Below are positions 4,885-26,592 of a DNA stretch of 42,328 nt, in pieces (the stretch's first letter is position 1; the number at the start of each line of letters is the position of its first letter). The stretch comes from an uncultured Faecalibacterium sp. (GTDB lineage: Bacteria; Bacillota; Clostridia; Oscillospirales; Ruminococcaceae). The notes beneath the pieces are model-generated. The model searched no databases. It was not told where the DNA came from and saw only the letters and a list, made by a program, of their open reading frames with translations. The position numbers were made by a program, and so were the translations under genes. The DNA lies in the NCBI GenBank assembly GCA_964511805.1, contig CAZEIG010000001.1:1-42328 (forward strand), written 5' to 3'.

Positions 4885-4906
4885 AACGCTGAAAGGAGTT
4901 TTTGCA

Positions 4907-5467: not shown

Positions 5468-5471
5468 GGCC

Positions 5472-5549: not shown

Positions 5550-5560
5550 GAGGCACAGAC

Positions 5561-5776: not shown

Positions 5777-5805
5777 AACGTTTGAAGAAATGGAGGTGAA
5801 TTGTC

Positions 5806-6222: not shown

Positions 6223-6269
6223 AAAGGCGCTGGATATTTTGACACGGGCAGGGTAATCAGGTAACTTGA
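6215..6269 (+). pseudogene. Possible 3' remnant of an ACT-domain gene
   Basis: NFEKALDILTRAG*; removing one A gives ...AGYQVT*, like the C-terminal helix of small ACT-domain proteins (recalled pattern). Confidence 0.35.
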
Positions 6270-6327
6270 CGGACAGGCGATAGAGCTTGCTGAGTTGTAT
6301 ACAACGCAATAATATGAGGATAATCGA

Positions 6328-6741: not shown

Positions 6742-6843
6742 ATGGACGTCTAAGGCCGTGGAAGCCCAAAACGCATACACAGCATACACAAAGGACCTCG
6801 AAAGGCCTGAAATGGCCCGAGAGGGCTTTTTTCTCTCCCCTAA

Positions 6844-6871
6844 ACTTCGTATAACGTGTATTATACGAAAT
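6844..6871. other. dif: dif-like site-specific recombination site (11-6-11)
   Basis: ACTTCGTATAA-CGTGTA-TTATACGAAAT; arms 6842-6854 and 6861-6873 are 12/13 inverted; intergenic, at the +/- gene convergence point, ~2.8 kb from a Xer gene. Confidence 0.8.
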
Positions 6872-6961
6872 TTGCGTATAGAGAAAATAAGTCCCCCTCT
6901 TCTCTCCCAAACTCTCAAATCATTATTCCAACCAGCCGTTCCAGCGTCGAACCAGATCAGC

Positions 6962-7012
6962 AAAAAACGCACTCCTCTCCCCGCGCCTGTGCGCCGGATC
7001 AGAAGTGCGTTT
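6962..7012 (-). terminator. Intrinsic terminator after aguB
   Basis: AAACGCACT...AGTGCGTTT inverted repeat with an A-run at 6962-6967 (U-tract on - strand). Confidence 0.6.
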
Positions 7013-7918: not shown

Positions 7919-7944
7919 TGCTTTCCCCTCCTTGTTATACCTTA

Positions 7945-9021: not shown

Positions 9022-9045
9022 GGGCAGCGTTCTCCTTTTATCCCG

Positions 9046-11456: not shown

Positions 11457-11606
11457 GATAAGGCTCCTTTCGTTAGGACAATTCCGTCCCGGCCGGCTGA
11501 CATGTGTGGACGGCCGGGACACATACAGGGAAATTTTTGGGCGAGAGTGTGCGAACTGCGCAACAGGTAGAAATGGGTCCCCCCTGGAGCCCCCTGGAGC
11601 GAAGCT

Positions 11607-12470
11607 TTAGTCCTCTTCCTCTTTCAGGAGGTCCTCGACGTAGCGCGGCAGCATGAAGGCGCCGCGGTGCAGATGTGTGGTATAATACCAGGTCTTGATC
11701 CCCCGCTTGTTCCAGCGCTTGGGGTCAAAGTCCTTGAGGGGGTGGTATTTTTTGCTGGCAAAACCGAACAGCCAGTACCCCGCCGGGCAGGTCGGGATGT
11801 GGGCCTGGTACACCCGGCTGATGGGGAAAGAACGGTAGGCCCGCTTATGCATGGCGCGGCAGCTCTCTTCATCCTCATCAAAAAAGGGACTGCCGTGCTG
11901 GTAGACCATGATCCCGTCGTCGTGGAGGGCTTTGTAGCAGCTGCCGTAGAATTCCTTGGTGAACAGCCCTGCCGCATGGCCCAGCGGGTCGGTACAGTCG
12001 TTAATGATGAGGTCGTATTCGTCCTCTTTGCTGCGCAGAAAGCGCAGGCCGTCCTCATAGTAGACACGGACGCGGATGTCATCCAGACCACAGGCGTTGT
12101 CCGGGAAGAACTTCCGGCAGACGTCCACGAACATTTTGTCCGGCTCCACCACGTCGATGACTTCGATCTCCTGGTAATAGGACAGTTCACGGGCGACGCC
12201 GCCGTCCCCGCCGCCGATGACCAGCACCCGCTTGACATCAGGGTGGACGGCCATCGGGACATGGACAATCATCTCGTCGTAGGTGAATTCATCTTTTTCC
12301 GAGAAGATGACGCTGCCGTCCGAAGTCAGGAACCGCCCGAACTCCGGCGAATCAAAGACGTCGATCCGCTGGAAGTCGCTGGTGCCGCTGTAGAGCTGCT
12401 GTTCCACCCGGATGCAGGTCTTGACGTTGTTGGTGTGCATTTCACCGAACCAGTAATCCATTTCCTGCAA
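11607..12470 (-). CDS. speE: Polyamine aminopropyltransferase (spermidine synthase family)
   Basis: VLVIGGGDGG, INDCTDP, YWLFGFASK; TTG start follows AAAGGAGG. Confidence 0.9.
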   Translation of the reverse strand: MQEMDYWFGEMHTNNVKTCIRVEQQLYSGTSDFQRIDVFDSPEFGRFLTSDGSVIFSEKDEFTYDEMIVHVPMAVHPDVKRVLVIGGGDGGVARELSYYQEIEVIDVVEPDKMFVDVCRKFFPDNACGLDDIRVRVYYEDGLRFLRSKEDEYDLIINDCTDPLGHAAGLFTKEFYGSCYKALHDDGIMVYQHGSPFFDEDEESCRAMHKRAYRSFPISRVYQAHIPTCPAGYWLFGFASKKYHPLKDFDPKRWNKRGIKTWYYTTHLHRGAFMLPRYVEDLLKEEED

Positions 12471-12484
12471 GATGATCCCTCCTT

Positions 12485-13933
12485 TCAGCTCAAAACGTTC
12501 AATTCAGAGATGTCCTCACTGGCCGGGCCCTGCATCGAGCAACCCTTGGCCTTGGCGAACTCAATGTAGTCGATGATCTCCTGAGTGATGACCTCGCCGG
12601 GGGCCAGGATGGGGATGCCCGGCGGGTAGCACATGACGAACTCAGTGCAGATCCGCCCGGCCGTCTCCCGCAGGGGCAGGCTCTCTTTGGGCGAATAGAA
12701 GGCCTGCTGGGGGGTGGCCGCCACCTGCGGGGTGATGTACTCCGCCGTGAACAGGTCGCTCCGCGGTTTGGAATAGAGCCGCCGGATGTCAGCCAGGGCG
12801 CCCACCAGACGCTCAATGTCCTGGATGCGGTCCCCGATCGAAATATAGGCCAGGATGTTGGATAGGTCGCCGAATTCGATCTGGATGTCGTACTCGTCCC
12901 GCAGCAGGTCGTAGACCTCGATGCCGGTCAGTCCGATGCCGCGGGTATTGACGGCCAGCTTGGTGACGTCGAAGTCAAAGATGCTACCGCCGTTGATCAG
13001 CTCCGACCCGAAGGCGTAATAGCCGCCGATGGCGTTGATCTCCCGCCGGGCGTACTCCGCCATATCGATCACCTTGGAAAAGCTTGCCCTGCCCCGCATG
13101 GCAAGGTTGCGGCGGCTGATGTCCAGGCTGGACATCAGCAGGTAGGAGGCGCTGGTGGTCTGGGTCAGGTTGATGATGTTGCTGACATAGCCCGCGTTGA
13201 CCTCCGGCCCGCAGAGCAACAGCGAGCTCTGGGTCAGGCTGCCGCCCGACTTGTGCATTGAGACGGCGGCCATATCGGCCCCGGCCGCCATCCCGCTGAG
13301 GGGCAGGCTTGGCCCGAAGTAGAGGTGGGTGCCGTGGGCTTCATCCACCAGGGCCAGCATCCCATGGGCGTGGGCCAGCTCCACCAGACTGCGCAGGTCG
13401 GAGCAGATGCCGTAATAGGTGGGATTATTGATGAAGATGGCCACCGCATCGGAGTTGGCCTCGATGGCTGCGCGGACGTCTTCTACTTCCATCCCCAGCG
13501 GGATGCCCAGGTCTACGTCCACTTTGGGGTCGATGTAGACCGGCACCGCCCCGCAGAGCACCAGGGCATTGATGGCGCTCTTGTGGACGTTGCGGGGCAG
13601 GATGATCTTATCCCCCGGCTTGCAGGCCGTTAGCACCATGCCCTGGACGCTGCTGGTGGTGCCGCCTACCATCAGGAAGGCGTGGGCCGCGCCGAAGGCG
13701 TCGGCGGCCAGTTCTTCCGCCTCCTTGATGACAGAAACCGGATGGCACAGATTGTCCAGCGGCTTCATCGAGTTGACGTCGATCCCGACGCAACGTTCCC
13801 CCAGCAGCTCTACCAGCTCCGGGTTGCCGCGGCCCCGCTTATGCCCCGGCACATCGAAGGGCACCACCCTCTGCCGGCGGAATTTTTCCAGCGCCTCATA
13901 GATGGGCGCGCGCTTTTGACGTTCCCGGTCCAA
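12485..13933 (-). CDS. speA: Orn/Lys/Arg decarboxylase (AAT-fold), probable arginine decarboxylase
   Basis: FDVPGHKRG, PRNVHKS, VDEAHG, PLP-Lys SMHKS, YPPGIP; probable TTG start at 13933 after GGAGAGAGGG; substrate inferred from aguAB context. Confidence 0.88.
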   Translation of the reverse strand: MDRERQKRAPIYEALEKFRRQRVVPFDVPGHKRGRGNPELVELLGERCVGIDVNSMKPLDNLCHPVSVIKEAEELAADAFGAAHAFLMVGGTTSSVQGMVLTACKPGDKIILPRNVHKSAINALVLCGAVPVYIDPKVDVDLGIPLGMEVEDVRAAIEANSDAVAIFINNPTYYGICSDLRSLVELAHAHGMLALVDEAHGTHLYFGPSLPLSGMAAGADMAAVSMHKSGGSLTQSSLLLCGPEVNAGYVSNIINLTQTTSASYLLMSSLDISRRNLAMRGRASFSKVIDMAEYARREINAIGGYYAFGSELINGGSIFDFDVTKLAVNTRGIGLTGIEVYDLLRDEYDIQIEFGDLSNILAYISIGDRIQDIERLVGALADIRRLYSKPRSDLFTAEYITPQVAATPQQAFYSPKESLPLRETAGRICTEFVMCYPPGIPILAPGEVITQEIIDYIEFAKAKGCSMQGPASEDISELNVLS

Positions 13934-13976
13934 AAAACATCCCTCTCTCCTGTTTTTGATCCCAAAAGCGCCGCAC

Positions 13977-14011
13977 AAAAAAGGCAGCGCACCCTTGCGG
14001 GTACACTGCCT
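13977..14011 (-). terminator. Attenuator terminator in the polyamine operon leader
   Basis: AGGCAGTGTACCC-GCAA-GGGTGCGCTGCCT-TTTTT on the - strand, between promoter and RBS. Confidence 0.85.
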
Positions 14012-14345
14012 GTGAGAACAAATCATAGAGAAGCGGCCTGGCTGCCCTTTGTCAGAGGGCAGCGTCCTGCAACGCCCAGCCATACCGGGAGTAACTTCAG
14101 CAAATAGATCAAAGGACTGTTCTGCTGCTCTTATTGACGTTTCACAAGTGGTGTGCATCCGCACGGAGTTATAAAAAGTGACCAACTTATAAAATTTCCG
14201 GGCAATCTACCCGTTCAATAATTGTTGTGACGCTTTACGTCACACGCGGCAGCGGCCAGCCCTGTCCGATGAGCTTTAGGCATCCAAAAGGACGCCCGGC
14301 CTAATCTATTTGCGGGCGGACAAACGACAGCCCGCTTAGGCTCTA
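14012..14345 (-). ncRNA. Large structured cis-regulatory leader RNA, probably the ldcC RNA motif
   Basis: Many nested stems (TGTGACG/CGTCACA, TTATTGA/TCAATAA, GCTGCCCT/AGGGCAGC, GGCGTCC/GGATGCC) and a 10-nt long-range complement; position upstream of a polyamine decarboxylase in a Firmicute fits the described ldcC motif context; not confirmed by covariance search. Confidence 0.6.
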
Positions 14346-14350
14346 GCCCT

Positions 14351-14378
14351 ATTGTACCATGTTTTTTTCACTTGTCAA
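14351..14378 (-). promoter_or_regulatory. Sigma-A promoter of the polyamine operon
   Basis: TTGACA-16nt-TACAAT with extended -10 TG. Confidence 0.8.
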
Positions 14379-14528
14379 GCCGTGGATGCAAAACGCTTCA
14401 CTTTATTCATATATTTGGCGAAAAAGCGCGGTTTCCGCCGGACAGAATGGATGACATCCCTGCTCCAAAGCGTGGGATTTTGCCTTGTCAGCTTCGGTTG
14501 ACAAAATGCCAGCCAAGGTTGGTTGCAT

Positions 14529-14630
14529 ATGGGTGGTGCGCAATCCGTCATAATCATCGGCGGGACGACCGCCGTCCTGGTGTTTGCCTTGATGGCATTC
14601 TTCGCCTTCAACGTGACGTATGTCTGGTAA
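14529..14630 (+). CDS. Putative 33-aa single-TM peptide or remnant of a membrane protein gene
   Basis: MGGAQSVIIIGGTTAVLVFALMAFFAFNVTYVW*; followed by a terminator; weak RBS. Confidence 0.35.
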   Translation: MGGAQSVIIIGGTTAVLVFALMAFFAFNVTYVW

Positions 14631-14642
14631 AACGTTCTGCTC

Positions 14643-14681
14643 AAAAAGCTGCCGGCAGGGTCTGACCTTGCCGGCAGTTTT
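14643..14681. terminator. Bidirectional intrinsic terminator
   Basis: AAAAA-GCTGCCGGCAGGG-TCTGA-CCTTGCCGGCAGT-TTT downstream of pxpA. Confidence 0.8.
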
Positions 14682-14698
14682 GGCATGAGATGTTTTGG

Positions 14699-15454
14699 TT
14701 AGAAGGAAGCCGCTTCGATCCCCTCGGCCGCCAGGGCCGCCGAGATCTTTTGGACAAAGGCGAGGGCCTTGGGCCCGTCGCCGTGGACGCAGACCGAATC
14801 GGGGCGGATCGAGATGTCGGTGCCGTCGAAGGCCTGCACCTTCCCTTCCCGGACCATCCGGACCACCCGGGCGATGGCTTCGTCCTCGTCCTCGATCATG
14901 GCGCCGGGGGTTCCCCGCGGGACCAGGCTGCCATCGGGTCGATAGCCACGGTCGGCAAAGACCTCGCTGGCACAGGGCAGGCCGATGGCCTCGGCGGCCC
15001 GCAGCATCTCGCTGCCCGACAATCCCAGCAGGACGACCCCGGGGGCGGATTCCTTGACGGCGGCAGCGATGGCGTCGGCCAGGACCCGGTCCCGGGCGGC
15101 CATGTTGTAGAGAGCCCCGTGGGGCTTGACATGGTGGAGCGGGACGCCGTATGCGTCGCAGAAGGCCCGCAGTGCGCCGATCTGGTACTGGACGCTGGCC
15201 TTAACTTCGGCGGGCGGCATCTGCATTGGGTGACGGCCAAAGCCCTGCAGGTCGGGGTAGCCGGGATGGGCCCCCACCGCCACGCCGTACTCTTTGCACA
15301 TCTCGACGGTGTGGGCCATCACCATGGGGTCCCCTGCGTGGAGGCCGCAGGCGATGTTGGCCGAGTTGATGTAAGGGATGACCTGGGCGTCCATCCCGAT
15401 GGTGTAAGCGCCGAAGCTCTCGCCCAGGTCGCAGTTCAGGTCAATTTTGGCCAT
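14699..15454 (-). CDS. pxpA: 5-oxoprolinase subunit A (LamB/YcsF)
   Basis: IDLNCDLGESFG, ANIACGLHAGD, HVKPHGALYN, EVFADRGY, CVHGD; ATG 15454 follows AAGGAGG. Confidence 0.95.
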   Translation of the reverse strand: MAKIDLNCDLGESFGAYTIGMDAQVIPYINSANIACGLHAGDPMVMAHTVEMCKEYGVAVGAHPGYPDLQGFGRHPMQMPPAEVKASVQYQIGALRAFCDAYGVPLHHVKPHGALYNMAARDRVLADAIAAAVKESAPGVVLLGLSGSEMLRAAEAIGLPCASEVFADRGYRPDGSLVPRGTPGAMIEDEDEAIARVVRMVREGKVQAFDGTDISIRPDSVCVHGDGPKALAFVQKISAALAAEGIEAASF

Positions 15455-15468
15455 GGAAAACGCCTCCT

Positions 15469-16269
15469 TCAGTATTTCAGGCTGACGTTTTTGACGTCGG
15501 TGATGAACATATGCCCCGGCGCGTGGGTGATGCAGAACGACGGCTTGGAGTGCATCACCACGTTCTGCGGGGTTACACCGCATGGCCAGAAGACCGGCAC
15601 CTCGCCGGGACGGATGGTCACCGGGTCACCGTAGTCGGGGTGGGACAGATCAGCGATGCCGATGGCCTCGGGTGCGCCGATCTGAACCGGCATCCCGTGG
15701 ACGCGGGGCATCCCCGCCGTGATGGCCACAGCCAGCGGTACCAGCCTGTGTGGGATAGGCCGCATACTGACCACCATATTCCCGCTGAAGACACCGGCTG
15801 GCGCACAGGGGATGCTGGTATTGTACATCGGGACGTTGACCCCTTCCTCGATCTGGCGGACCGGGACGCCGGCCTCCAGCAGTTCGGCCTCAAAGGAGAA
15901 GCTGCACCCGATCAGAAAGCTGACGAGATCATCCCGCGCTTCAAAAAAGCGGGTCACGTCGGTATATTCGCCGGTCAGTTCGCCCTCTTCATAGACCCGA
16001 TAGCGGGGAATGTCGGCGGCGATGTCACTGTCCGGCGCCAATTGGGCAAAGGTTCGCTCCCCTGCGTCGGCTACTTCCAGCAGCGGGCAGGACTTGGGGT
16101 TACGCTGGCAGAAGAGAAGGAAGTCCCACGCCAGCGCTTTGGGCAGCACCACCAGGTTGCCCTGGGCGTAGCCATTGCAGAAGCCGGTGGTGGGGCCGGT
16201 GATCTCCCCCCGGCGGATCAGCGCCCGCACCTGGGAGGGCGCGGCGGCCCGATAATCAACAACGTTCAT
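15469..16269 (-). CDS. DUF1445/YcsI putative hydro-lyase (D-glutamate cyclase family)
   Basis: FCQRNPKSCPLL, IGCSFSFE, VVSMRP, VFWPCGVTPQ, ITHAPGHM. Confidence 0.9.
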   Translation of the reverse strand: MNVVDYRAAAPSQVRALIRRGEITGPTTGFCNGYAQGNLVVLPKALAWDFLLFCQRNPKSCPLLEVADAGERTFAQLAPDSDIAADIPRYRVYEEGELTGEYTDVTRFFEARDDLVSFLIGCSFSFEAELLEAGVPVRQIEEGVNVPMYNTSIPCAPAGVFSGNMVVSMRPIPHRLVPLAVAITAGMPRVHGMPVQIGAPEAIGIADLSHPDYGDPVTIRPGEVPVFWPCGVTPQNVVMHSKPSFCITHAPGHMFITDVKNVSLKY

Positions 16270-17264
16270 GCCATACGCTCCTTGATCTGTTGCAGTTTGG
16301 CGGCTTCCCGGCGGCAGGCTTCCGCCGCCTGACCGGCCGTCAGATAGGTAAAACCCAGCTTCTGCCCCGGCCGCATCTGGGCCATGGCCCAGACGTCCAC
16401 CGTGCAGAGGGTGGCGATCTTGGCATAACCGCCGGTGGTCTGGTGGTCGGCCAGCATGACGATGGGCTGACCGTTGGCCGAGATCTGGACCGAGCCGGCC
16501 ACGATCCCGTCCGACAGGATGTCAACTCCGTCCTTTGGCTCGATGACCGGGCCACTCAGTTTGCAGCCCATCCGGTCACAGTCGGCGGTTAGGCTGTAGA
16601 CCCCGTGAACCAGGGCCGCCTGCCCTGCCGCCGTGAAGGCGCCGGCCTGTGGGCCGGGCACCGCGCGGAAGAGGGGTAGCGGCTGCTCTCCTCCAAACCG
16701 CCAGGGCCGGAGGACTGTCCGCCCGTTCTCGCCCAGCGGTTTTTCCGCGCCGCGGCGGCATATCTCCTCCCAGCGCCGGCGGGCCTGGCCGGCGCTGCGC
16801 CCGACGGGGAGGAGGTCGCCGGTACGCAGCGCACGGCCGTCCAGCCCGCCGAGGCCGCACTTGAGGTCGGTGGAGCGGCTGCCCAGCACCGGCGGCGTAT
16901 CGATGCCGCCGTATACGGCCAGGTAGGCCCGCAGCCCGTCCCCGGCGGCCCCCAGGGTCAGGACCGACCCGGCGGGCGCCAGACAGGGGGCGAAGAATGG
17001 AAGTGCAGCGCCGTCCAGCGCCGCCGGCATCTCAGCCCCCGCCAGGGCGAATAGGGTGTCCTCTTCAAAGCGGAACGTCCCGCCCATGATGGTCAGCTCC
17101 AGCGCGGCCATGGTGTCATCTCCGTTGCCAGCCAGAAGGTTGGCGGCCCGGAAGGCATAGCCATCGGCCGCGCCGCAGAGCCGGTAGCCCTGCGCCCCAT
17201 GGCCGATTCGCCCGGCATCCTGCACCGTGGTCAGGGGGCCGGGCTTCAAAACGGTGATGCTCAT
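16266..17264 (-). CDS. pxpC: 5-oxoprolinase subunit C (KipA family)
   Basis: TTVQDAGR, LGSRST, GQPIVMLADHQTTGGYAKI. Confidence 0.92.
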   Translation of the reverse strand: MSITVLKPGPLTTVQDAGRIGHGAQGYRLCGAADGYAFRAANLLAGNGDDTMAALELTIMGGTFRFEEDTLFALAGAEMPAALDGAALPFFAPCLAPAGSVLTLGAAGDGLRAYLAVYGGIDTPPVLGSRSTDLKCGLGGLDGRALRTGDLLPVGRSAGQARRRWEEICRRGAEKPLGENGRTVLRPWRFGGEQPLPLFRAVPGPQAGAFTAAGQAALVHGVYSLTADCDRMGCKLSGPVIEPKDGVDILSDGIVAGSVQISANGQPIVMLADHQTTGGYAKIATLCTVDVWAMAQMRPGQKLGFTYLTAGQAAEACRREAAKLQQIKERMA

Positions 17265-17962
17265 CAGACTCCCTCCTGTTCCGCTGCGATCTGTTCAAAT
17301 TCCGCCGCGCCGATGGGGACAAAACGGATCCGGTCTCCCGCCGCATAGGGCAGCGGCCGACCGGGGTCGAACAATTTGAGGGGGGTGCGGCCGATCAGCT
17401 GCCAGCCGCCCGGCGAGGCCACCGGGTAAATGCCGGTCTGCTCGCCGCCGATCCCGACCGACCCCGCCGGGATGGCGGTGCGTGGGCTGTCCAGGCGGGG
17501 GCAGAAGAGTTTTTCATCCAACCCGCCGAGATAAGGGAAGCCCGGCAAAAAACCCAGCATATAGATCCGGTAGTCCCGGCCGCTGTGGAGCGCCACCGCC
17601 TCGGCTTCAGACAGGCCGGCGTGCCGGGCCACAAAGGCGAGGTCGGGGCCGTAGGACCCTCCATAGCAGACGGGGATCTCCACCAGACGCCCGGCCTCTT
17701 TCCCGCTGCCCGAAGGTTCCGGCAGGTCCGCTGTCAGGACGCGGAGCCGTTCGGTCAGGGCGTCGGGATCGGTCTGCAGCGGGTCGCAGCAGACCAGTAG
17801 GGATGCGTAGGCCGGGATGGTCTCAGTCACACCGGGGAGCCGGGCGGCCCGGATGGCGGCGTCCAATGCCATCACCCGGGCGCTGACCGCCTCTGAGATG
17901 GAGGCGCCGCAGACTGCCAGCACCGCCGCATCCCCCGCCGGGGAAAAAGTGACGCCTGTCAT
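17264..17962 (-). CDS. pxpB: 5-oxoprolinase subunit B (KipI family)
   Basis: IPVCYGG..GPDL, LGFLPGFPYL, QTGIYP..SPGGWQLIGRTP. Confidence 0.93.
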   Translation of the reverse strand: MTGVTFSPAGDAAVLAVCGASISEAVSARVMALDAAIRAARLPGVTETIPAYASLLVCCDPLQTDPDALTERLRVLTADLPEPSGSGKEAGRLVEIPVCYGGSYGPDLAFVARHAGLSEAEAVALHSGRDYRIYMLGFLPGFPYLGGLDEKLFCPRLDSPRTAIPAGSVGIGGEQTGIYPVASPGGWQLIGRTPLKLFDPGRPLPYAAGDRIRFVPIGAAEFEQIAAEQEGV

Positions 17963-17980
17963 CCTTTCATCCCCTCCCCG

Positions 17981-19048
17981 TCATCCGGCAAAAAAGCCTT
18001 TTTGGAGCACCGGGCCAAACCAGCGGTCCGAGTTGTGGGAATAGCGGACGGCGTAGGCGGTACACTGCCGCATCAGGCTGACGATGCTGACGTTCATCCG
18101 CGTGTCGAAGCCGTCCACCCCCGGCAGCAGGGAGCCGGTCATGTCGATCATCCCGTTGCGGGAGAGCACCCGCATGACTTCGCTCTCCATCTCTTCCCGG
18201 TGAAGGACGTTCATGTCCTTTTTCAGGTAGGCCATGGCGGCCATCAGGGCGTAACAGCCCCAGTCGGAGCAGGTGGCGGTGATGACATTGTCGGCGCAGG
18301 TGGCCGAAAGGATCCCGCCGCCGCATCCACAGCTGCACTCCCCCTCCGCAGTAAAGGGGACGTACCGCTTGATATGCTCCCCGATGGTTCCCATCCCGAT
18401 CTCGTTGCCGAGGTCCCCGATGGCGATGTTAAGGATACCCCGGGCCCGCAGTGCCGCCCAGAGGACGTCGCTCTTGGCCTGCAGGGCGCTGACATCTTCC
18501 CCGCCGGCGTTGTGATAGACACCCCGGGCGTTGGCGCCGCAGGCCTCGATCGAGACGACCGCCGCAGGCGGGCAGACGTCAATCAGCTTTTCCGCCACAG
18601 CGCCGGCCTCGGCCCGCTCCTTGGTGAAAGGCACCACCCCGATGCTCAGGGGAAGCTGACGCACCGCGTCTAGATCCCGGTAGCAGTGGAGACCCACCAC
18701 GTTGGCGCAACGCTCAAAGGCGGTGACGCTGTCCTCGGGGCAGACGATGACCGGCTTGGCGTCAAGGGCAAGAACCAGCGCCCTTGCCAGCAACATGGCG
18801 CTGACCGAGCCGTCCATCTCGGGCACCTTGTGGGGCAGCAGGACAAATCCCACCAGGATGTAGACCACATCCCCTTTCCGGACCGTCCGGCAGAGGGCCT
18901 CGGCGGCGTGCATGGCGATGGGCTCTCCGGTATAGGCGCGGGCCCCCGCGTAGAGAATCCGGCAGACGCCGTAGCCCCGCGGGTCTAGGCACATCAGAAC
19001 GTCGAGGTTCTCGCCCACGTTCCGCTTTTCCAATTCATCCCGGGTCAT
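17981..19048 (-). CDS. DUF4392 (glutamate-cyclase-associated domain) protein
   Basis: EMDG, GxYHNxxG, AIGDLGNEIGMG, SDWG, VDG motifs; ATG 19048 follows AAAGGGGGAG. Confidence 0.8.
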   Translation of the reverse strand: MTRDELEKRNVGENLDVLMCLDPRGYGVCRILYAGARAYTGEPIAMHAAEALCRTVRKGDVVYILVGFVLLPHKVPEMDGSVSAMLLARALVLALDAKPVIVCPEDSVTAFERCANVVGLHCYRDLDAVRQLPLSIGVVPFTKERAEAGAVAEKLIDVCPPAAVVSIEACGANARGVYHNAGGEDVSALQAKSDVLWAALRARGILNIAIGDLGNEIGMGTIGEHIKRYVPFTAEGECSCGCGGGILSATCADNVITATCSDWGCYALMAAMAYLKKDMNVLHREEMESEVMRVLSRNGMIDMTGSLLPGVDGFDTRMNVSIVSLMRQCTAYAVRYSHNSDRWFGPVLQKGFFAG

Positions 19049-19065
19049 AGATGCTCCCCCTTTCC

Positions 19066-19923
19066 TCAGCCCTCCAGGCTGGAAAGACCGGTGTAGGCGT
19101 AAAATTCGGACAGGACCTCCTGCTGGATGGCGCGGCGTGTGCCGGGGTCCTTGCAGCCGACGGGCCGACCGTTCAGCTCGTTGGCATAGAGGCAGAAGTT
19201 GGAGGAAGAAGAGACGATGATCTCGTCGGCCTCTTTCAGGAAGTCCATCGTAAAGGGCTTTTCTATCACCGTGATCCCCAGCCGGTAGCAGGACTGGATG
19301 ATGTGAGTCTTGGCGATCCCGCGCAGGATCAGCTCGTCGTTGGGGTGGGAGTAGAACACCCCCTCCTTCAGCACCGATACGTTGGAGTGGGCGCACTCGG
19401 TGACTATCTCGCCCCGGTGGAAAACCGTTTCGTCACAGCCCTGCAGGCTGGCGCGCTGGGCGGTGCGAACGCTGGGCAGCAGGTTCAGGGTCTTGATATT
19501 GCAGTGGAAAAAGCGGGTGTCCTCCTCGTCGTTGAGCTTGATGGGGCTTTCGGGGTCCCGCAGTTTGTTGGGACGGATAAAGACCCACAGCTTGCCGGGA
19601 ATATCCTCGGCATAGGCGTGGTTCCGGGGCGCGACGCCGCGGGTCACCTGCCAGTAGACGAAATTGACCTTGCCGTCCACCTGGGCCAGCAGGCCGGTCA
19701 GCAGCTCGCCCAGCTCGGCCTTGGGCATCGGGACGTTGATATCCAGGGCCTTGGCGCTGGTGTAAAAGCGATCCAAATGATCCTGCAGCAGAAAGACTTT
19801 GCCGTTTGCGCCGACGGTGGCGTCGTAGCAGCCGTCGCCGAAAAAGTGGACACGGTCATTGAAAGGGACCTGCAGCTCGTCGGGCGAGCCGACCTTGCCG
19901 TCATAGTATGCGATGGATTCCAT
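19066..19923 (-). CDS. dat: Class IV aminotransferase, D-amino-acid transaminase-like
   Basis: DRVHFFGDGCYD, YWQVTRG..PRNH, CNIKTLNLL, VTECAHSNV, ILRGI; ATG 19923 follows GGAGGTG. Confidence 0.8.
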   Translation of the reverse strand: MESIAYYDGKVGSPDELQVPFNDRVHFFGDGCYDATVGANGKVFLLQDHLDRFYTSAKALDINVPMPKAELGELLTGLLAQVDGKVNFVYWQVTRGVAPRNHAYAEDIPGKLWVFIRPNKLRDPESPIKLNDEEDTRFFHCNIKTLNLLPSVRTAQRASLQGCDETVFHRGEIVTECAHSNVSVLKEGVFYSHPNDELILRGIAKTHIIQSCYRLGITVIEKPFTMDFLKEADEIIVSSSSNFCLYANELNGRPVGCKDPGTRRAIQQEVLSEFYAYTGLSSLEG

Positions 19924-19946
19924 GGTGAAACTCACCTCCGTTTCTC

Positions 19947-20597
19947 TTATCCTTTGACGGGTTTTGCGCCGTACTTCCGCGCGATGATGGTCTCGATGAC
20001 CTCGACGCAGGTGTCCAGCCCCAGGGCGGCGCTGTCCAGGCAGAGGTCATAGTTGCCAGGCTGCTGCCAGCGCTGGCCGGTGTGGTAGTTGTAGTAGTGC
20101 TCCCGGTAGCGGTCCAGCCGGTCGATGTAGTGGATGGCGTCCCCCCGGCTGACCCCCTGCCGTTCCATCTCACGCTGGACGCGGGCTTCATAGGGTGCGT
20201 CGATGTAGACCTTGAGGACGTTGGGCTTATCCCTCAAAATGAAGTCGGCCGCCCGCCCGATGCAGACGTAACTCTCCTGGTTCAGCAGCTCCCGCAGAAC
20301 CTTGGCCTGGTAGTTGAACAGGTTCTGGTCGCTGATGAAGTTGCCGCTCTCAGGTGAGATGGCCCGGCCATCGTACACCTTCCGGCTGACCTTGTACAAG
20401 AGGGTCTTGCGGGTGTTCTCATCCGCCGCAGCGAAGATGGCTTCGCTGATCCCGCTGTTCTCCGAGGCCAGGCGGAGCAGCTTGCGGTCGTAGACGTCGA
20501 TACCGTAATCCGCCGCCAGTTTTTTGCCGATGTAGCTGCCGCCGCCCGACCCGCAGGTGCGGGTGATGGCGATGGCAAAGTATTTGCTTTCTGCCAT
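19947..20597 (-). CDS. Cytidylate-kinase-like family protein
   Basis: IAITRTCGSGGG, VCIGRAADFIL, YYNYHTG..W, YDLCLDS. Confidence 0.88.
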   Translation of the reverse strand: MAESKYFAIAITRTCGSGGGSYIGKKLAADYGIDVYDRKLLRLASENSGISEAIFAAADENTRKTLLYKVSRKVYDGRAISPESGNFISDQNLFNYQAKVLRELLNQESYVCIGRAADFILRDKPNVLKVYIDAPYEARVQREMERQGVSRGDAIHYIDRLDRYREHYYNYHTGQRWQQPGNYDLCLDSAALGLDTCVEVIETIIARKYGAKPVKG

Positions 20598-20610
20598 AAA
20601 AACTCCCTCC

Positions 20611-21309
20611 TCACTGGCCCAGATAGGCTTTCTTCACCCGTGGGTCGTTCAGCAGCTCCTGGGCGTCCCCCTGGATGGTGATCTTTCCGTTTTCCAGGAC
20701 GTAGGCCCGGTTGGAGATGGACAGAGCCATCCGGGCGTTCTGCTCCACCAGCAGGACGGTGATCCCCTGGGCGTTGACCTCCCGGATGATGTCGAAGATC
20801 TCCCGCACCAGCAGAGGCGACAGGCCCATTGAGGGTTCATCCATCAGGATCATTTTGGGTTTGGACATCAGGGCCCGGCCTACCGCCAGCATCTGCTGCT
20901 CGCCGCCAGAGAGGGTGCCCGCCAGCTGGCGGCGGCGCTCCTTCAGGCGGGGAAAGCGCCGGTAGACGTCCTGCCTGGTCTCCTCCATCCCGGTGGGGTC
21001 GGCATAGGCACCGATCTCCAGGTTTTCCTCCACGCTCATGTCGGGGAAGATATGCCGTCCCTCGGGCACATGGGCCAGCTTGAGGGAGATGATCTTGCTG
21101 GGCTCGGTCTTGATGAGGTCGTGTCCATCAAACTCAATGGAGCCGGAGGCCGCCTTCTCCAGCCCGGTGATGGTGCGGAGGGTGGTGGTCTTGCCGGCGC
21201 CGTTGGCGCCGATCAGGGAGACGATCTCCCCGTCCCGCACCTCCAGCGAGACGCCGTTCAGAGCCTGGACGGCGCCGTAGTGTACATACAAATCTTTGAC
21301 TGTCAGCAT
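20611..21309 (-). CDS. livF: Liv-type ABC transporter ATPase
   Basis: GANGAGKTT, VPEGR, AGTLSGGEQQM, DEPSMGL. Confidence 0.93.
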   Translation of the reverse strand: MLTVKDLYVHYGAVQALNGVSLEVRDGEIVSLIGANGAGKTTTLRTITGLEKAASGSIEFDGHDLIKTEPSKIISLKLAHVPEGRHIFPDMSVEENLEIGAYADPTGMEETRQDVYRRFPRLKERRRQLAGTLSGGEQQMLAVGRALMSKPKMILMDEPSMGLSPLLVREIFDIIREVNAQGITVLLVEQNARMALSISNRAYVLENGKITIQGDAQELLNDPRVKKAYLGQ

Positions 21310-22109
21310 CAGATCCCCTCCACAACATCGTTGTCTTTGCCCAGATAAGCTTCGATAACCTTCGGGGAGTTTGCCACCTCGGCGGGGGTACCGCAGGCGA
21401 TGGTGGTGCCGAAGTCCAGCACCTGGATCCGCTCGCAGATCTTCATGACCAGGCTCATGTCGTGCTCGATCAGCAGCACCGAGATCTTGAACTGGCTGCG
21501 GATGTAATCGATGATCTCCAGCAGCTCCTCGGTCTCGGTGGGGTTCATCCCGGCGGCCGGTTCGTCCAGAAGCAGCAGCTTTATGTCGGTGGCCAGGGCC
21601 CGGGCGATCTCCAGCCGGCGCTGCTCGCCGTAGGGCAGGTTGTCTGCCTCCACGTCCTCCTTGCCGGCGAGGTGGACCACCGCCAGCAGCTCCTTGGCCC
21701 GGGCAGTGATGGCCTCCTCCTGGCTCCAGTAGGACTTGGTCCGGAGGATGGCCTGGGGCAGGCCGTAGGTCAGCTTATCCAGCATGGCGGCCTTGACGTT
21801 CTCAATGACCGTCATTTTTTTGAACAGCCGGATGTTCTGGAAGGTCCGCGCGATGCCGGCGCGGACGATTTGATGGGTCTTTTTGCCATTCATTCGCTTG
21901 CCGTTGAGGTAGAAGGAGCCTTCGGTGGGCTTATACACCCCGGTGATGAGGTTGAAGACGGTGGTCTTGCCGGCGCCGTTGGGGCCGATCAGTCCCACCA
22001 GCTCGGACTCCCCGATCTCCAGGTTGAAGTCATCGACGGCTTTCAGACCGCCGAACTGGATGCCGAGGTGCTGGCAGCGCAGGACGGGAACATTTGCAGT
22101 AGCAGCCAT
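21309..22109 (-). CDS. livG: Liv-type ABC transporter ATPase
   Basis: GPNGAGKTT, RTFQNIRLF, LPYGEQRRLEIARALA, DEPAAG. Confidence 0.93.
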   Translation of the reverse strand: MAATANVPVLRCQHLGIQFGGLKAVDDFNLEIGESELVGLIGPNGAGKTTVFNLITGVYKPTEGSFYLNGKRMNGKKTHQIVRAGIARTFQNIRLFKKMTVIENVKAAMLDKLTYGLPQAILRTKSYWSQEEAITARAKELLAVVHLAGKEDVEADNLPYGEQRRLEIARALATDIKLLLLDEPAAGMNPTETEELLEIIDYIRSQFKISVLLIEHDMSLVMKICERIQVLDFGTTIACGTPAEVANSPKVIEAYLGKDNDVVEGI

Positions 22110-22112
22110 AGC

Positions 22113-23156
22113 TTACACCCCTTTCGTCTTTCTGCTGGCGGGCACGGCCTTGGCCGCCGCCTTCTTTTGGAACAGCGTTTTGAAGCCGCCCTCCTTCACC
22201 CAACGGAAGGAACGGATCAGGCTGAACTCCCAGCGACCGAAGATCCCACCCGGGCGGAAGAGCATGACCAGCACCAGCACCACCGAGTAACCCAGCATAC
22301 GGTAGGTGGAGAACTGGCGCATCAGCTCAGGCAGGGCCGACAGGAATGCCGCGCCGATGATCGAGCCAGTCAGGGAGCCGGTGCCGCCGATGATGACCTC
22401 ACTGAGCAGCTCGGCCGAGTAGTTGAAATCAAAGTTGGTGGGGATCATGGCGGTCATGTAGTGGGCGTAAACGCCGCCGCCGACCCCGGCAAAGAAGCTG
22501 GAAACCGCGAAGGTCAGTACCTTGTAGAAGATGACGTTGATACCAGAGGCCTCAGCCGCGATGTAGTCCTCCCGGATGGCCTGGACGGTGCGGCCAAACT
22601 TGCTGCGGACAAAGAGGAACATGATAGTGACGCAGACCACCATGATCCAGAAAGTGCGGCTGAAGTTGGACAGCCGGAGGATGCCGCTCATGGTGCGGCC
22701 GCCGCCGGTGATCTCAAAGTTGCAAAAGCAGACCCGGATGATTTCGGCGAAGGCCATGGTGACGATGGCCAGGTAGTCGCCCCGCAGCCGCAGGGCCGGG
22801 ATGCCCACCAGCACCCCCGTCAGCCCGGCCACCAGGCCGCCGGCCAGCACCGCGACGATCAGGAGAGCCAGGTCGGACAGGCCCCGCCCTGCCAGGGCGT
22901 TGGAGACGATGGCCGACACATAGGCGCCCACTGAGACGAAGCCCGCATGGCCGAGAGAAAATTCGCCCATGAAGCCGACCACCAGGTTCAGGGAGGCCAC
23001 CATGATGATGGTGTAGCAGGCGGTGGTGCAAACGCCCTGGACGTAGGTGGTGGAGCGCCCGAAGGCGTTGAACTGGAACAGGGCCGTCATGATGCAGAAG
23101 AGCACCACCACAGCCACTGCGTTGAGCAGATAGGAGGCTTTGCGTTGTTTGGTCAT
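22113..23156 (-). CDS. livM: Liv-type ABC transporter permease
   Basis: FSLGHAGF, LRLRGDYLAIVT, AIRED..AA. Confidence 0.92.
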   Translation of the reverse strand: MTKQRKASYLLNAVAVVVLFCIMTALFQFNAFGRSTTYVQGVCTTACYTIIMVASLNLVVGFMGEFSLGHAGFVSVGAYVSAIVSNALAGRGLSDLALLIVAVLAGGLVAGLTGVLVGIPALRLRGDYLAIVTMAFAEIIRVCFCNFEITGGGRTMSGILRLSNFSRTFWIMVVCVTIMFLFVRSKFGRTVQAIREDYIAAEASGINVIFYKVLTFAVSSFFAGVGGGVYAHYMTAMIPTNFDFNYSAELLSEVIIGGTGSLTGSIIGAAFLSALPELMRQFSTYRMLGYSVVLVLVMLFRPGGIFGRWEFSLIRSFRWVKEGGFKTLFQKKAAAKAVPASRKTKGV

Positions 23157-23169
23157 GTCAGGATCCTCC

Positions 23170-24060
23170 TCACACTTTCTCGCCGACGTTCTTGCCCAGA
23201 ATACCGGAGGGCTTCACCAGCAGGATGACGATCAGGGTGCCGTAGGTGATTGCCTCATACCAGCCGGGGGCGAACAGACGGACAAAGATCTCAATCAGGC
23301 CGATCAGGACGCCGCCCAGCATGGCACCGGGGATGACCCCGATGCCGCCCAGCACCGCCGCGATGAAGGCCTTCATCCCCATGGTAGTGCCCATGTCGTT
23401 GGTGACGCGGGGATAGGTGGTGCAGTACATCAGGGCGGCCACCGCCGCCAATGAGGAGCCTACCGCAAAGGTCACGGTGATGATCCGGTTGACGTTGATC
23501 CCCATCAGGGTGGAGGCATCCCGGTCCTGGGGGACGGCCCGCATGGCCCGGCCCAGCTTGGTCCGGTTGACAAAGAGCTGCAGACCCACCATAATGGCCA
23601 GACCGATGGCAATGGTCAGAACCACGTTGAGGGAGACGGTCACTCCGGCCACCGTGACCGAAGGCAGGGCGAAGATGGTGGAAACGTTGTGAGGCCGCGA
23701 ACCGAAGAGAACCATGGCCAGGTTCTGCAGAAAGATGCTCATGGCCAGGGCGGTGATCAGGGCCGACATCGAGCCAGCCTTCCGCACCGGACGGTAGGCG
23801 AAGGTCTCCACCAGGACGCCCACTACTGCGCAGACGGCGATGGCCGCCACCACCGCCAGCCAGGCGGGCATCCCGGCGTTAACCATCAGCGGGACAGTGT
23901 AAAACAGGGTATAGGAACCGATCATGATGAAGTCGCCGTGGGCAAAGTTGATCATCCGGATGATCCCGTACACCATGGTATAGCCCAGGGCAATCAGCGC
24001 GTAGATCGAACCCTGGTTCAGGCCGTTGATCAGGCTCAGAACAAAGAGTGAAAGCGTCAT
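23170..24060 (-). CDS. livH: Liv-type ABC transporter permease
   Basis: YALIALGYTMVYG..INFAHG, GRAMRAV, AAVLGGIG. Confidence 0.93.
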   Translation of the reverse strand: MTLSLFVLSLINGLNQGSIYALIALGYTMVYGIIRMINFAHGDFIMIGSYTLFYTVPLMVNAGMPAWLAVVAAIAVCAVVGVLVETFAYRPVRKAGSMSALITALAMSIFLQNLAMVLFGSRPHNVSTIFALPSVTVAGVTVSLNVVLTIAIGLAIMVGLQLFVNRTKLGRAMRAVPQDRDASTLMGINVNRIITVTFAVGSSLAAVAALMYCTTYPRVTNDMGTTMGMKAFIAAVLGGIGVIPGAMLGGVLIGLIEIFVRLFAPGWYEAITYGTLIVILLVKPSGILGKNVGEKV

Positions 24061-24177
24061 TTGTCCATTCCCCTTTCCCGGCAGCCGGCGGGTCCGGCTG
24101 CCATATAAAGCGCGCGGCGGCCTGAGAGCTGGCGCCGCGCGTGATGGTTTATGCGAAAGTTTTCCGGTCAGGCCTGT

Positions 24178-25413
24178 TTATGCCGCGGCAACCACGTTGC
24201 CCTCGGCGTCCAGGGTCTCGAACCACTGAACCTGGCCGTCTACGAAGGTGTTGAAGACGATCTGCTTTTCAGGGTCGCCGTTCTCGTCCAAGGTGAAGGT
24301 GCCGCCCACGCCAGTGAAGGTCATCCCGGTCATCCCTTCCACCAGGCTGGCGGTGTCGGATGCGCCGGCGTTGATGGCCGCCTGGTAGATCATGTAGATG
24401 GCGTCATAGTACAGGGAAGCGCAGGCGTTCAGGCTCTCGGTGCCGTAGAGCTCGGTGTACTTGGTGACGAAGTTGACGACTGCGGGCGAGGTGTCCTCGC
24501 TGGAGTAGTGGTTGGTGAAGTAACAGTTCTCAAACTGGGCCTCGAGGCCGGTGGTGTCCGAGCTGTCCCAGCCGTCACCGCCCATGATGGCGCCGGTGAA
24601 GCCGTTGGAACGAGCCTGGCTGACCAGCAGCGGGACGGTATCCTGGAAGCAGGGGTAGTAGAGGAACTCAGCGCCGGAGGCAACCACCTGGGCTACCTGG
24701 GAAGAAAAGTCTGTGTCGGTGGTGGTGCACTGACCCTCATAGACCACCTCGATGCCCAGCGCCTCGCAGTTCTCGATGAAAGCGTCCTTCAGACCGTTGG
24801 AATAGTCATCATCGTTGGCGTAGAGGACGGCAACCGTGCTGTACCCCTGGGATTCGACAAAGAGGGCGGCCATACGGCCCTGATAGGGGTCGATGAAGCA
24901 GTCGCGGAAGATGGTGGGGCCGGTCAGGGTGACGCTGGTGTTGGTGGCGCCGGTGGCCAGCAGCAGCATGTTGTCAGTTGCGGCCTGCTCGGCCATCGGC
25001 AGAGTAACCGAGGAGAAGAAGCTGCCCACCAGCGCCTCAGGGGCGTCCGACATCACCAGGTTGTAGGCGTTCATGGCCTGGCGGGCATCCTGGGCGTCGT
25101 CAGCGATCTGGCCGCCGTTGACGATCTCGATGGTGAACTCGCCGCCGCTGGAGTTGATCTCCTCCACAGCCATGTCAATGGCGTTCTGTGCGCCCTCGCC
25201 ATAGATGGCCGAGCCACCGGTCATCGGGCCGATGACGCCGATCCGGATGACGTAATCCTCCTTGCTGGCGGCGGAGGCTGTGCTCGAGGCGGTGGACGCT
25301 GCCGTCGAAGTCGTACCGCCCTGCTGGGTGGAGGACGAACAGCCGCTCATCAGGCCGGCCGTCACGGCCGCTGCCATGGTCAACGATAAGATCCTGTTTC
25401 GTGTTTTCATCAT
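24178..25413 (-). CDS. Liv-type ABC substrate-binding lipoprotein
   Basis: Signal peptide with lipobox LMSGC, Ser/Thr/Ala linker, IGVIGPMTG, FIDPYQG, GGDGWD; ATG at 25413 or 25410 follows GGGGAGGG. Confidence 0.9.
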   Translation of the reverse strand: MMKTRNRILSLTMAAAVTAGLMSGCSSSTQQGGTTSTAASTASSTASAASKEDYVIRIGVIGPMTGGSAIYGEGAQNAIDMAVEEINSSGGEFTIEIVNGGQIADDAQDARQAMNAYNLVMSDAPEALVGSFFSSVTLPMAEQAATDNMLLLATGATNTSVTLTGPTIFRDCFIDPYQGRMAALFVESQGYSTVAVLYANDDDYSNGLKDAFIENCEALGIEVVYEGQCTTTDTDFSSQVAQVVASGAEFLYYPCFQDTVPLLVSQARSNGFTGAIMGGDGWDSSDTTGLEAQFENCYFTNHYSSEDTSPAVVNFVTKYTELYGTESLNACASLYYDAIYMIYQAAINAGASDTASLVEGMTGMTFTGVGGTFTLDENGDPEKQIVFNTFVDGQVQWFETLDAEGNVVAAA

Positions 25414-25440
25414 ACTTATACCCTCCCCAAAGGCAACAAA

Positions 25441-25553
25441 AATACAAAAAGGCGCATTGCCGGTCGGTCCGGCAGACACGCCTTTGTGCTGCAGGGAACA
25501 AAAAACGAGGTCCACACAGAGGAGTCAGTCCCCTGCCGTGAACCTCGTTGTTC
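25441..25553 (-). promoter_or_regulatory. Leader with two tandem terminators, each overlapped by an ANTAR-like hexaloop hairpin
   Basis: GAAC-AACGAG-GTTC (25540-25553) and GCAC-AAAGGC-GTGT (25476-25489), loops with A1/G4, each sharing the 5' arm of a U-tailed hairpin. Confidence 0.6.
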
Positions 25554-25579
25554 TCGTTTGTCGCCTGATTGATATCAGC

Positions 25580-25609
25580 ATTATATAGCAGATGCAACGG
25601 TTTTTGCAA
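25580..25609 (-). promoter_or_regulatory. Sigma-A promoter of the liv-dat-pxp operon
   Basis: TTGCAA-18nt-TATAAT. Confidence 0.6.
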
Positions 25610-25725
25610 GCACTTTTTGTATCGGATTATCTTTTTTGTGAGAATACCAGAAAACACTTCACATTTTTTCTTCGAGAGAGCGCAAAACGCCGAAAAACTT
25701 AAAAATATTTTCCACCGCTTCCGTT

Positions 25726-26592
25726 TCAGCTCGTCTGCGCCAGCGGCTGGGTGCCGAAGTAGGCGCAGATGGCCTCGTAGTAGACCCGGGCGGCCAGCTG
25801 GCAGCCGTCCGCATCACCAAAGCGGTCCACGTCCTCGGCGCTGGTCACAAAGCACTGCTCAGCCAAAACCGCCGGGCACTCGGACTGTTCCAGGATGGTG
25901 AAGGTATCCTCGTCCCGCACCCGTATGTCGTTGGACTCGGTCAGGGAGCGCTCCCCGTTCACATAGTAGATGTACCGCACGCCGTCTACACCGCGCAGGC
26001 TGCTGCCGGCGTTTGCCATCCCGGCGGCAAGCAGCCGGGCAAAATAGACGCTCTCTCTGTGCCAGCTTCGCCCCGGGGTGATGGGGTAACACTCGAAGCC
26101 GCTGGCCGTAGAGCCCGCGGCCGCCGAATTGCCGTGGATGGAGAGGAGCAGGTCGGGGTTCTGGCTGTTGGAGCGCTCCACTCGCTCGGCAGGTGTGGCG
26201 GTGACCTCGTAGTTCTCCCGGGTGGTCACCGGCAGATAGTTGGGGTCTGCCTCCAGCCAGGCCAGCAGGGCGTCGGCGGTGGCGGCGGTCATCTCCCGTT
26301 CCACCACCACCCCGGTGGCACCGGGGTCGGTGCCGCCGTGGCCAGCGTCCACCGCTATGGTATAGGGCGGGTCCCCGACCTCCGGCCGGAAGTCCTCATC
26401 GGGCTCCCCCGTGGTGGGGGCGCTGGCCGCCGGCCACCAGGCCCAGTCGGCAATGGGCGTGGTGAGCAGGGTGATGGCCTGCCGCAGCGCCGCCCCGCCC
26501 ACTACCACGGCGGCAGCCAGGGCCAGGAACTGCCAGCGGAAGCGGCCCTTCTTCCCGTGTTTTCCTTTGGAACGTCTGTATGGTTGTTTCAT
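25726..26592 (-). CDS. Membrane-anchored N-acetylmuramoyl-L-alanine amidase (Amidase_3)
   Basis: Basic N-terminus plus TM segment; VDAGHGGTDPGA, E, LSIHGN, PAVLAE zinc motifs. Confidence 0.88.
   Translation of the reverse strand: MKQPYRRSKGKHGKKGRFRWQFLALAAAVVVGGAALRQAITLLTTPIADWAWWPAASAPTTGEPDEDFRPEVGDPPYTIAVDAGHGGTDPGATGVVVEREMTAATADALLAWLEADPNYLPVTTRENYEVTATPAERVERSNSQNPDLLLSIHGNSAAAGSTASGFECYPITPGRSWHRESVYFARLLAAGMANAGSSLRGVDGVRYIYYVNGERSLTESNDIRVRDEDTFTILEQSECPAVLAEQCFVTSAEDVDRFGDADGCQLAARVYYEAICAYFGTQPLAQTS

Follow-up and report, generated by a model that had tools for sequence, protein, structure and literature searches.

Two groups of described systems lie closest to the locus analysed here. 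The animal D-glutamate cyclase DGLUCY (C14orf159, EC 4.2.1.48) holds a DUF1445 and a DUF4392 domain in one chain, according to excerpts of PMC5339696 and PMC5132392 and as seen in the frog and bird proteins; the mouse enzyme is reported to make 5-oxo-D-proline, and humans excrete this compound (excerpts of PMC5339696). That the two domains can be fused has already been noted (excerpts of PMC5132392), and one table row in the excerpted part of PMC12547972 lists gut homologues of human GLUCM in split form. The second group consists of the pxpABC operons, among them E. coli ybgLJK, C. difficile kipOTIA and C. glutamicum pxpTABC, which contain PxpA, PxpB and PxpC, and B. subtilis ycsF-ycsG-ycsI-kipI-kipA, in which a YcsI/DUF1445 gene is interleaved with those for PxpA, PxpB and PxpC. 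Characterised PxpABC acts on the L form of 5-oxoproline, as cited in excerpts of PMC11485210. Here we describe a 12-gene operon in which separate DUF1445 and DUF4392 genes, a pxpABC set, a predicted D-amino-acid transaminase gene (dat) and a Liv-type importer stand together. It lies in the window, that is, the whole stretch of 42,328 nucleotides analysed from an uncultured Faecalibacterium sp. (assembly GCA_964511805.1, contig CAZEIG010000001.1).

We read this operon as an ATP-driven route from D-glutamate to L-glutamate by way of the lactam, a tentative reading that we place a little short of an even chance and for which we infer the reactions, their order and their direction. Dat would make D-glutamate by transferring the amino group of D-amino acids, above all D-alanine, to 2-oxoglutarate; the DUF4392 protein would cyclise D-glutamate to 5-oxo-D-proline, the DUF1445 protein would invert the latter to 5-oxo-L-proline, and PxpABC would open the L-lactam with ATP to yield L-glutamate. 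Cyclisation of glutamate to its lactam is downhill. The initial annotation had proposed such a D-to-L pathway; sequence and comparative data support its D-specific transaminase, metal enzyme and oxoprolinase and the linkage among them, and its direction and epimerase keep the standing of proposals. In order of transcription, the genes are as follows.

24178..25413, minus strand: LivK/LivJ-type (HAAT) amino-acid-binding lipoprotein, 411 amino acids (Pfam PF13458; closest solved structures 3TD9 and 3IP5)
23170..24060, minus strand: LivH-type permease (Pfam, NCBIfam)
22113..23156, minus strand: LivM-type permease (Pfam, NCBIfam)
21309..22109, minus strand: LivG-type ATPase (Pfam, NCBIfam)
20611..21309, minus strand: LivF-type ATPase (Pfam, NCBIfam)
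19947..20597, minus strand: cytidylate-kinase-like protein (PF13189), which travels with the transporter (Pfam, locus comparison)
19066..19923, minus strand: predicted D-amino-acid transaminase (Dat), 285 amino acids (NCBIfam, residue match to the Bacillus YM-1 enzyme)
17981..19048, minus strand: DUF4392 / GLUCM-like_C metal enzyme, 355 amino acids, predicted D-glutamate cyclase (Pfam, metal ligands, model)
17264..17962, minus strand: PxpB (Pfam, NCBIfam)
16266..17264, minus strand: PxpC (Pfam, NCBIfam)
15469..16269, minus strand: DUF1445 / YcsI / UPF0317 protein, 266 amino acids, candidate 5-oxoproline racemase (Pfam, NCBIfam, invariant C122 and C230)
14699..15454, minus strand: PxpA (Pfam, NCBIfam)

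The 12 open reading frames all have minus-strand orientation; livK begins with an ATG at 25413, pxpA ends with its stop at 14699, and the successive intergenic gaps are 117, 13, 3, -1, 13, 23, 17, 18, -1, -4 and 14 bp. The largest gap, 117 bp, follows livK; the other junctions measure at most 23 bp and three of them overlap, in agreement with the co-oriented, mostly abutting or overlapping genes first annotated, whose names are likewise borne out by Pfam and NCBIfam. The importer and kinase-like genes match Peripla_BP_6, BPD_transp_2 (twice), ABC_tran (twice) and Cytidylate_kin2, and the enzyme genes match Aminotran_4, GLUCM-like_C, CT_C_D, CT_A_B, D-Glu_cyclase and LamB_YcsF. The profile check suggested for the two DUF proteins gives clear matches for both, GLUCM-like_C (DUF4392, PF14336) at E 1.8e-82 and D-Glu_cyclase (DUF1445, PF07286) at E 8.4e-69. 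The NCBIfam cut-offs are passed by PxpB, PxpA and the 'putative hydro-lyase', and PxpC lies above the cut-off of the domain model TIGR00724 and below that of NF045499, so that by Pfam and NCBIfam all three Pxp subunits are encoded in one cluster. Every enzyme gene of the operon is single-copy in this 82% complete genome.

The arrangement is conserved. Searching species genomes with the DUF4392 protein yielded 46 related loci from other species, and an even draw of 200 other genomes of the order served as a background sample (order sample); 80 metagenome loci are nearly all from one species, and three of these were looked at. Of the 46 loci, 39 have the whole core DUF4392-pxpB-pxpC-DUF1445-pxpA; in six others it is cut off at the edge of a contig or close to it, and in one a pxpC match is lacking. 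The gene order is not due to chance. The gene dat stands directly upstream of the core in 30/46 loci, which bears out the predicted co-occurrence of dat, DUF4392, DUF1445 and pxpABC, and Liv genes adjoin the core in 26/46. In 6/54 loci alr directly follows pxpA, and there it is the sole alr of the genome in three of the five genomes checked. The module is thus layered: a five-gene core, then dat, then either the importer or (6/54 loci) alr. With alr on board, the net reaction would be L-alanine + 2-oxoglutarate + ATP to pyruvate + L-glutamate, with every gene acting in series.

In the order sample, PF14336 occurs in 10 of the 200 genomes, PF07286 in eight and pxpA in those same eight, where pxpA and DUF1445 are found exclusively inside this cluster; a pxpA match is absent from the other 192. 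PxpABC is therefore not general L-pyroglutamate housekeeping in this order. The remaining two PF14336 genomes carry short-type DUF4392 genes in other contexts, and at one locus (G138:C62:1-5041) a tandem array of three such short-type genes follows ABC ATPases, in a genome with no DUF1445 or pxp matches. The nearest named DUF4392 relatives belong to Faecalibacterium, Gemmiger, Subdoligranulum and other gut Clostridia. Near-identical DUF4392 genes in Bulleidia, Coriobacteriaceae and Subdoligranulum records suggest either lateral transfer or a binning error. In a Pseudoalteromonas record, DUF1445-pxpA-DUF4392-dat lies directly behind a NagZ-like GH3 glycosidase.

Compared with the known pxp operons, then, the locus differs in that its pxp genes are tied to DUF4392 and Dat (sometimes Alr), in this order only within the module, and in that a HAAT ABC importer takes the place of YcsG/PxpT. 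From DGLUCY, with which it shares both domains, the metal ligands and both cysteines, it differs in that the domains are encoded by two genes, with pxpB and pxpC lying in between, and that these stand with genes for an oxoprolinase and a transaminase. Searches of the open-access literature turned up no account of the pathway or of any 5-oxoproline racemase, and the pxp papers on C. glutamicum (PMC13274462) and C. difficile (10.1101/2024.05.01.592088) gave no relevant term matches. The parts are known, and their combination into a pathway is a variant of the pxp operons to which we assign a conjectural chemistry.

Sequence and comparative data support the assignment of Dat. The best relative of known structure is the Bacillus sp. 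YM-1 D-amino-acid transaminase (PDB 1DAA/3DAA; E 2e-44), whose residues F26, Y31, Y88, R98, H100 and K145 all have equivalents here; Y33, R100, H102 and K144 correspond to Y31, R98, H100 and K145 of that enzyme, and the motif residues (carboxylate trap and catalytic lysine) are invariant in 37/37 aligned orthologues. Y31, R98 and H100 define D-specificity in the YM-1 enzyme (excerpts of PMC8401098). D-amino-acid transaminase is also the best NCBIfam family, at 209.8 bits against a TIGR01121 cut-off of 277.45 bits, and the L-specific BCAT families score far below it. Unlike the YM-1 enzyme, Dat departs at the end of motif 1 (V33-x-[KR]35), where A35 and V37 replace V33 and K35, the latter being V in 24/37 orthologues; the P-pocket lysine is missing from other D-transaminases too (excerpts of PMC8401098). 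D-specificity is supported, and the original call of a D-amino-acid transaminase stands on its canonical residues even with the family cut-off missed. A Dat-like gene occurs in 46/46 genomes carrying the module, including 16 in which no copy adjoins the core, and in the order sample in 7/8 carriers vs 19/192 non-carriers. Given its presence in 46/46 carriers vs 19/192 non-carriers, the module depends on Dat. That carriers with no adjacent dat make D-glutamate without Dat was considered and rejected, as all 16 have a Dat-like gene elsewhere. In these genomes it is mostly a tandem pair of dat paralogues in an unrelated context; across seven such loci the pair has an Mrp/Mnh-like antiporter cluster beside it in five and mostly a glycosyltransferase neighbour.

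The AlphaFold model of the DUF4392 protein (pLDDT 96) matches TON_0340 (DUF4392, PDB 4FC5) with a Z score of 34.2 and a root mean square deviation (r.m.s.d.) of 1.7 over 258 residues. The two proteins have the same fold and all six acidic residues of the metal site, although the DUF4392 protein described here is ~85 residues longer and only 27% identical. The six TON_0340 metal ligands (E77, D79, E168, D212, E216 and D312) are invariant in the 53-54 aligned DUF4392 orthologues; in TON_0340 they bind Mn or position a water molecule (excerpts of PMC5132392). Because lactam formation or hydrolysis fits well with a small cavity that holds a dimetal site, DUF4392 is the better cyclase candidate of the two DUF proteins, as judged from sequence and model. 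The mouse DGLUCY is reportedly metal-dependent.

The DUF1445 protein is 44-49% identical to the bird and frog DGLUCY domains and 51-55% identical to 2PIF and 3DB9, two proteins from structural genomics. Fold searches return its own family (2PIF, Z 26.8) and otherwise the NrpR domain 3NEK (Z 8.2, r.m.s.d. 4.4 over 161 aligned residues), a regulatory domain that we take to be a 2-oxoglutarate sensor; they gave no known racemase fold, an absence that we do not take as evidence. C122 is invariant in 119/119 and C230 in 118/118 aligned sequences from 120 long DUF1445 homologues (both 50/50 in a separate alignment, A3), and in the model each lies at a strand-to-helix turn. Two-cysteine cofactor-independent racemases (MurI, DapF, proline racemase) carry two invariant cysteines at helix starts, and in this the predicted placement of C122 and C230 resembles them. 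Gene fusions point the same way. Among the best 120 of 259 longer DUF1445 homologues, counted by eye, DUF1445 is fused to DUF4392 in ~69, many of them bacterial, to PxpC in two and, in 13, to an oxoprolinase/lactamase of the unrelated OplA type. Fusion to two unrelated oxoprolinases suggests that DUF1445 feeds oxoprolinases, as a 5-oxoproline racemase would. The initial annotation had allowed for an oxoproline epimerase in one of the two DUF proteins; the invariant cysteines and the oxoprolinase fusions make DUF1445 the better candidate, and the epimerase step itself stays putative. Two further features of the fusion proteins may be mentioned. Four of them (P0297, P0300, P0301 and P0312) are triple fusions of DUF4392, the N-terminal and middle domains of MurD, and DUF1445, in which DUF1445 replaces the D-glutamate-binding C-terminal domain of MurD. 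In the bacterial single-chain DUF4392-DUF1445 proteins inspected, the domain order is the reverse of that in animal DGLUCY. A search of representative proteins gave 1555 DUF4392 relatives, and the best 150 of these include no fusion.

The distribution of the glutamate racemase MurI was compared with that of the module. In the order sample MurI is missing from 6/8 carriers vs 23/192 non-carriers (Fisher p 1e-4, overstated by kinship), and among Dat-positive genomes from 5/7 carriers vs 2/19 non-carriers (Fisher p 6e-3, likewise overstated by kinship). Such a lack of MurI in carriers would be expected if the two routes can replace each other and are futile together. Across the 46 loci MurI scores above the cut-off in 21/26 genomes whose module has the importer and in 6/20 of those lacking it, many of these 20 forming one clade; on a quick DUF4392 tree (54 rows) MurI status changes at least four and up to eight times. 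As several loci hold the sole alr and lie in genomes lacking MurI, the module is tied to general D-alanine/D-glutamate metabolism. These counts suggest a transporter-less housekeeping form, which together with Dat often replaces MurI, and an importer-bearing accessory form, as in the present genome. Of the readings, only the D-to-L route puts alr, dat, both DUF proteins and pxpABC to use one after another and accounts for the trade-off with MurI.

Several observations weigh against this route. The DUF4392 protein belongs to a long subtype that is 24-29% identical to DGLUCY-type domains (24-25% to those of frog and bird), and its pocket motifs read EMDGSVS, EACG and SDW vs ETDGPxG, ERxG and SNW in the DGLUCY type. 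More distant DUF4392 genes sit in varied catabolic clusters with no pxp genes, in 5/5 plasmid regions viewed. A long-type DUF4392 acting on another metabolite, such as a D-amino acid that is amidated or other than glutamate, a phosphate ester or a related lactam, with its cyclase likeness holding only at family level, would account for the differing motifs. It would also be in keeping with TON_0340, a weak Mn-dependent phosphatase whose natural substrate is not known (excerpts of PMC5132392), and with the P. putida PxpABC paralogue that hydrolyses butyrolactam (excerpts of 10.1101/2021.12.09.472016). We nevertheless regard such a substrate as very improbable: the DGLUCY-type DUF4392 subtype is seen in the same gene context too (the Pseudoalteromonas record), the phosphatase efficiency of TON_0340 is very low (1.9e2 per M per s; excerpts of PMC5132392), and D-glutamate is what the connections with Dat, Alr, MurI and MurD all suggest.

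For DUF1445, the invariant H191 and H249 mean that its Cys/His set could instead be a metal site. Moreover, frog and bird DGLUCY keep both DUF1445 cysteines, yet the product reported for the mouse enzyme is the D-lactam (excerpts of PMC5339696), which an active racemase domain would hardly explain. The same observation favours a scheme with no racemase at all, in which DUF1445 and DUF4392 would form one DGLUCY-like cyclase, the D-lactam would be a dead end or excreted, and PxpABC would handle L-lactam separately; the fusion of the two domains in animals and many bacteria, in either order, fits it as well. We consider it improbable, since pxpB and pxpC separate the two DUF genes here, DUF1445 is common in the absence of DUF4392 and fuses to oxoprolinases, DUF4392 also occurs without DUF1445, and an importer fits poorly with throwing away a five-carbon nitrogen compound.

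The MurI data also cut the other way. The counts come from related, partly incomplete metagenome-assembled genomes; the present genome has an intact-looking MurI as well as Alr, both encoded elsewhere, and MurI occurs in all 16 genomes of this DUF4392 clade. The proposed route is therefore redundant here and could cycle futilely; since MurI could invert D-glutamate without ATP, this genome does not require the route just to turn the D form into the L form. In the order sample, 21 of the 29 genomes lacking MurI also lack the module and give no Dat match with the queries used; those 21 include 5/5 of one genus from the same family as the present genome, one of them closed. The frequent lack of MurI in carriers could also mean that the module runs in reverse, from L-glutamate or its lactam through 5-oxo-D-proline to D-glutamate for peptidoglycan, replacing MurI. 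The four fusions of DUF4392, truncated MurD and DUF1445 would suit such a supply, and the divergent DUF4392 pocket could mean an altered stereo-preference. This direction nonetheless appears distinctly unlikely. Dat is found in 46/46 carriers, often together with Alr, and that pair suffices for D-glutamate (excerpts of PMC8401098); a D-specific PxpABC would be needed, contrary to the L-acting enzymes cited in excerpts of PMC11485210; and MurI is present in this very genome.

The importer has the five-gene HAAT architecture by Pfam and NCBIfam, although all five proteins score below the NCBIfam Liv cut-offs. Its binding protein resembles amino-acid binders (E 1e-41 to 1e-27, with 3TD9 and 3IP5 the closest), and its pocket positions hold aromatic residues that are invariant in 25/25 orthologues and differ from those of paralogues. 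F132 of the binding protein aligns with F77 of 3IP5, a residue that presumably limits that protein to small ligands. Imported D-amino acids had been named as the input of the pathway; an importer is indeed present here, but Liv genes are missing from about half of the related loci, and import is therefore not the core of the system. In this lineage the importer and a two-terminator leader would have been added to the D-to-L route, making it an inducible means of scavenging small (D-)amino acids in the gut lumen.

The importer also bears on lactam salvage, in which both 5-oxoproline enantiomers, arising by spontaneous damage or from diet and host, would be recovered and deliberate cyclisation of D-glutamate would not be the purpose. 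PxpABC would then open the L form, the DUF proteins would handle the D form, and Dat would dispose of or supply D-glutamate. A HAAT-type importer in a pxp cluster has a precedent in SAR11, where the SAR11_0655 system takes up L-pyroglutamate beside pxpABC (excerpts of PMC11485210; PDB 8WCH). DUF1445 accompanies pxp genes with no DUF4392 in Lactiplantibacillus and Paracoccus records, and in the same arrangement in B. subtilis (excerpts of PMC10448178). The binding protein of the present operon, however, is barely similar to that of SAR11 (E 0.73 against 8WCH) and close to amino-acid binders, and the excerpts of PMC11485210 mention no Dat or DUF4392. With 192/200 order genomes lacking a pxpA match, repair alone is not generally needed, and the strict dependence on Dat would be left unexplained. 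Salvage as the purpose of the operon is thus unlikely.

Upstream of livK lies a leader with the following elements.

25580..25609, minus strand: sigma-70-type promoter-like site, TTGCAA-18-TATAAT (a similar site lies upstream of livK in related loci)
25499..25551, minus strand: leader hairpin 1 with U-tract, terminator-like, beginning ACRANGRSG (sequence, folding)
25443..25487, minus strand: leader hairpin 2 with U-tract, terminator-like, beginning ACRANGRSG (sequence, folding)

The whole leader folds with a z score of -6.05. One or two hairpin units are found upstream of livK in 21/25 related loci, and none ahead of the first gene in the 29 loci that start with another gene. This layout points to attenuation control. 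Two further amino-acid ABC operons of this genome (C13:4283, plus strand; C55:7128, minus strand) have the same promoter and ACRANGRSG-hairpin arrangement ahead of them, and the hairpins before the three operons are a candidate attenuator family. An Rfam scan of positions 13900-26000 returned no real family, only one internal ribosome entry site match at E 0.35, and in 24 genomes the promoter and motif pattern taken without the hairpin is no commoner than in a reversed control. The cytidylate-kinase-like protein was considered as an antiterminator of the leader, a role that is not supported: the motif occurs within 8 kb upstream in 1/40 other PF13189 loci and is missing from three other operons that combine Liv genes with this kinase-like gene.

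If the D-to-L route is correct, reactions would be assigned to two widespread families of unknown function, the role of each domain in the human mitochondrial DGLUCY would become clear, a D-glutamate turnover route would be placed beside glutamate racemase and the D-glutamate dehydrogenases, and the module would mark gut bacteria as possible consumers of D-amino acids and 5-oxo-D-proline. A bolder version, which we regard as doubtful, would make DUF1445/YcsI the founding member of a new two-cysteine racemase fold with 5-oxoproline as substrate and DUF4392 the catalytic domain of DGLUCY. In it the one-way, ATP-driven route with Alr, Dat and PxpABC would throughout the bacteria be interchangeable with MurI, the importer of gut Clostridia, under attenuator control, would serve a sink for D-amino acids of the gut lumen, and animal DGLUCY would contain an overlooked racemase domain.

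Beyond the operon, the window holds at 7040-14185 (minus strand) a polyamine cluster that is complete by Pfam and has its own promoter at 14351-14378; its genes encode an Arg/Lys decarboxylase, spermidine synthase, carboxyspermidine dehydrogenase and decarboxylase, agmatine deiminase and N-carbamoylputrescine amidase. Positions 1305-6500 carry SnoaL-like, nitrilase-like and hydrolase open reading frames and a tyrosine recombinase (2910-4082), with a dip in GC content near 5000-7000; this region is possibly a small insertion or merely XerD context.

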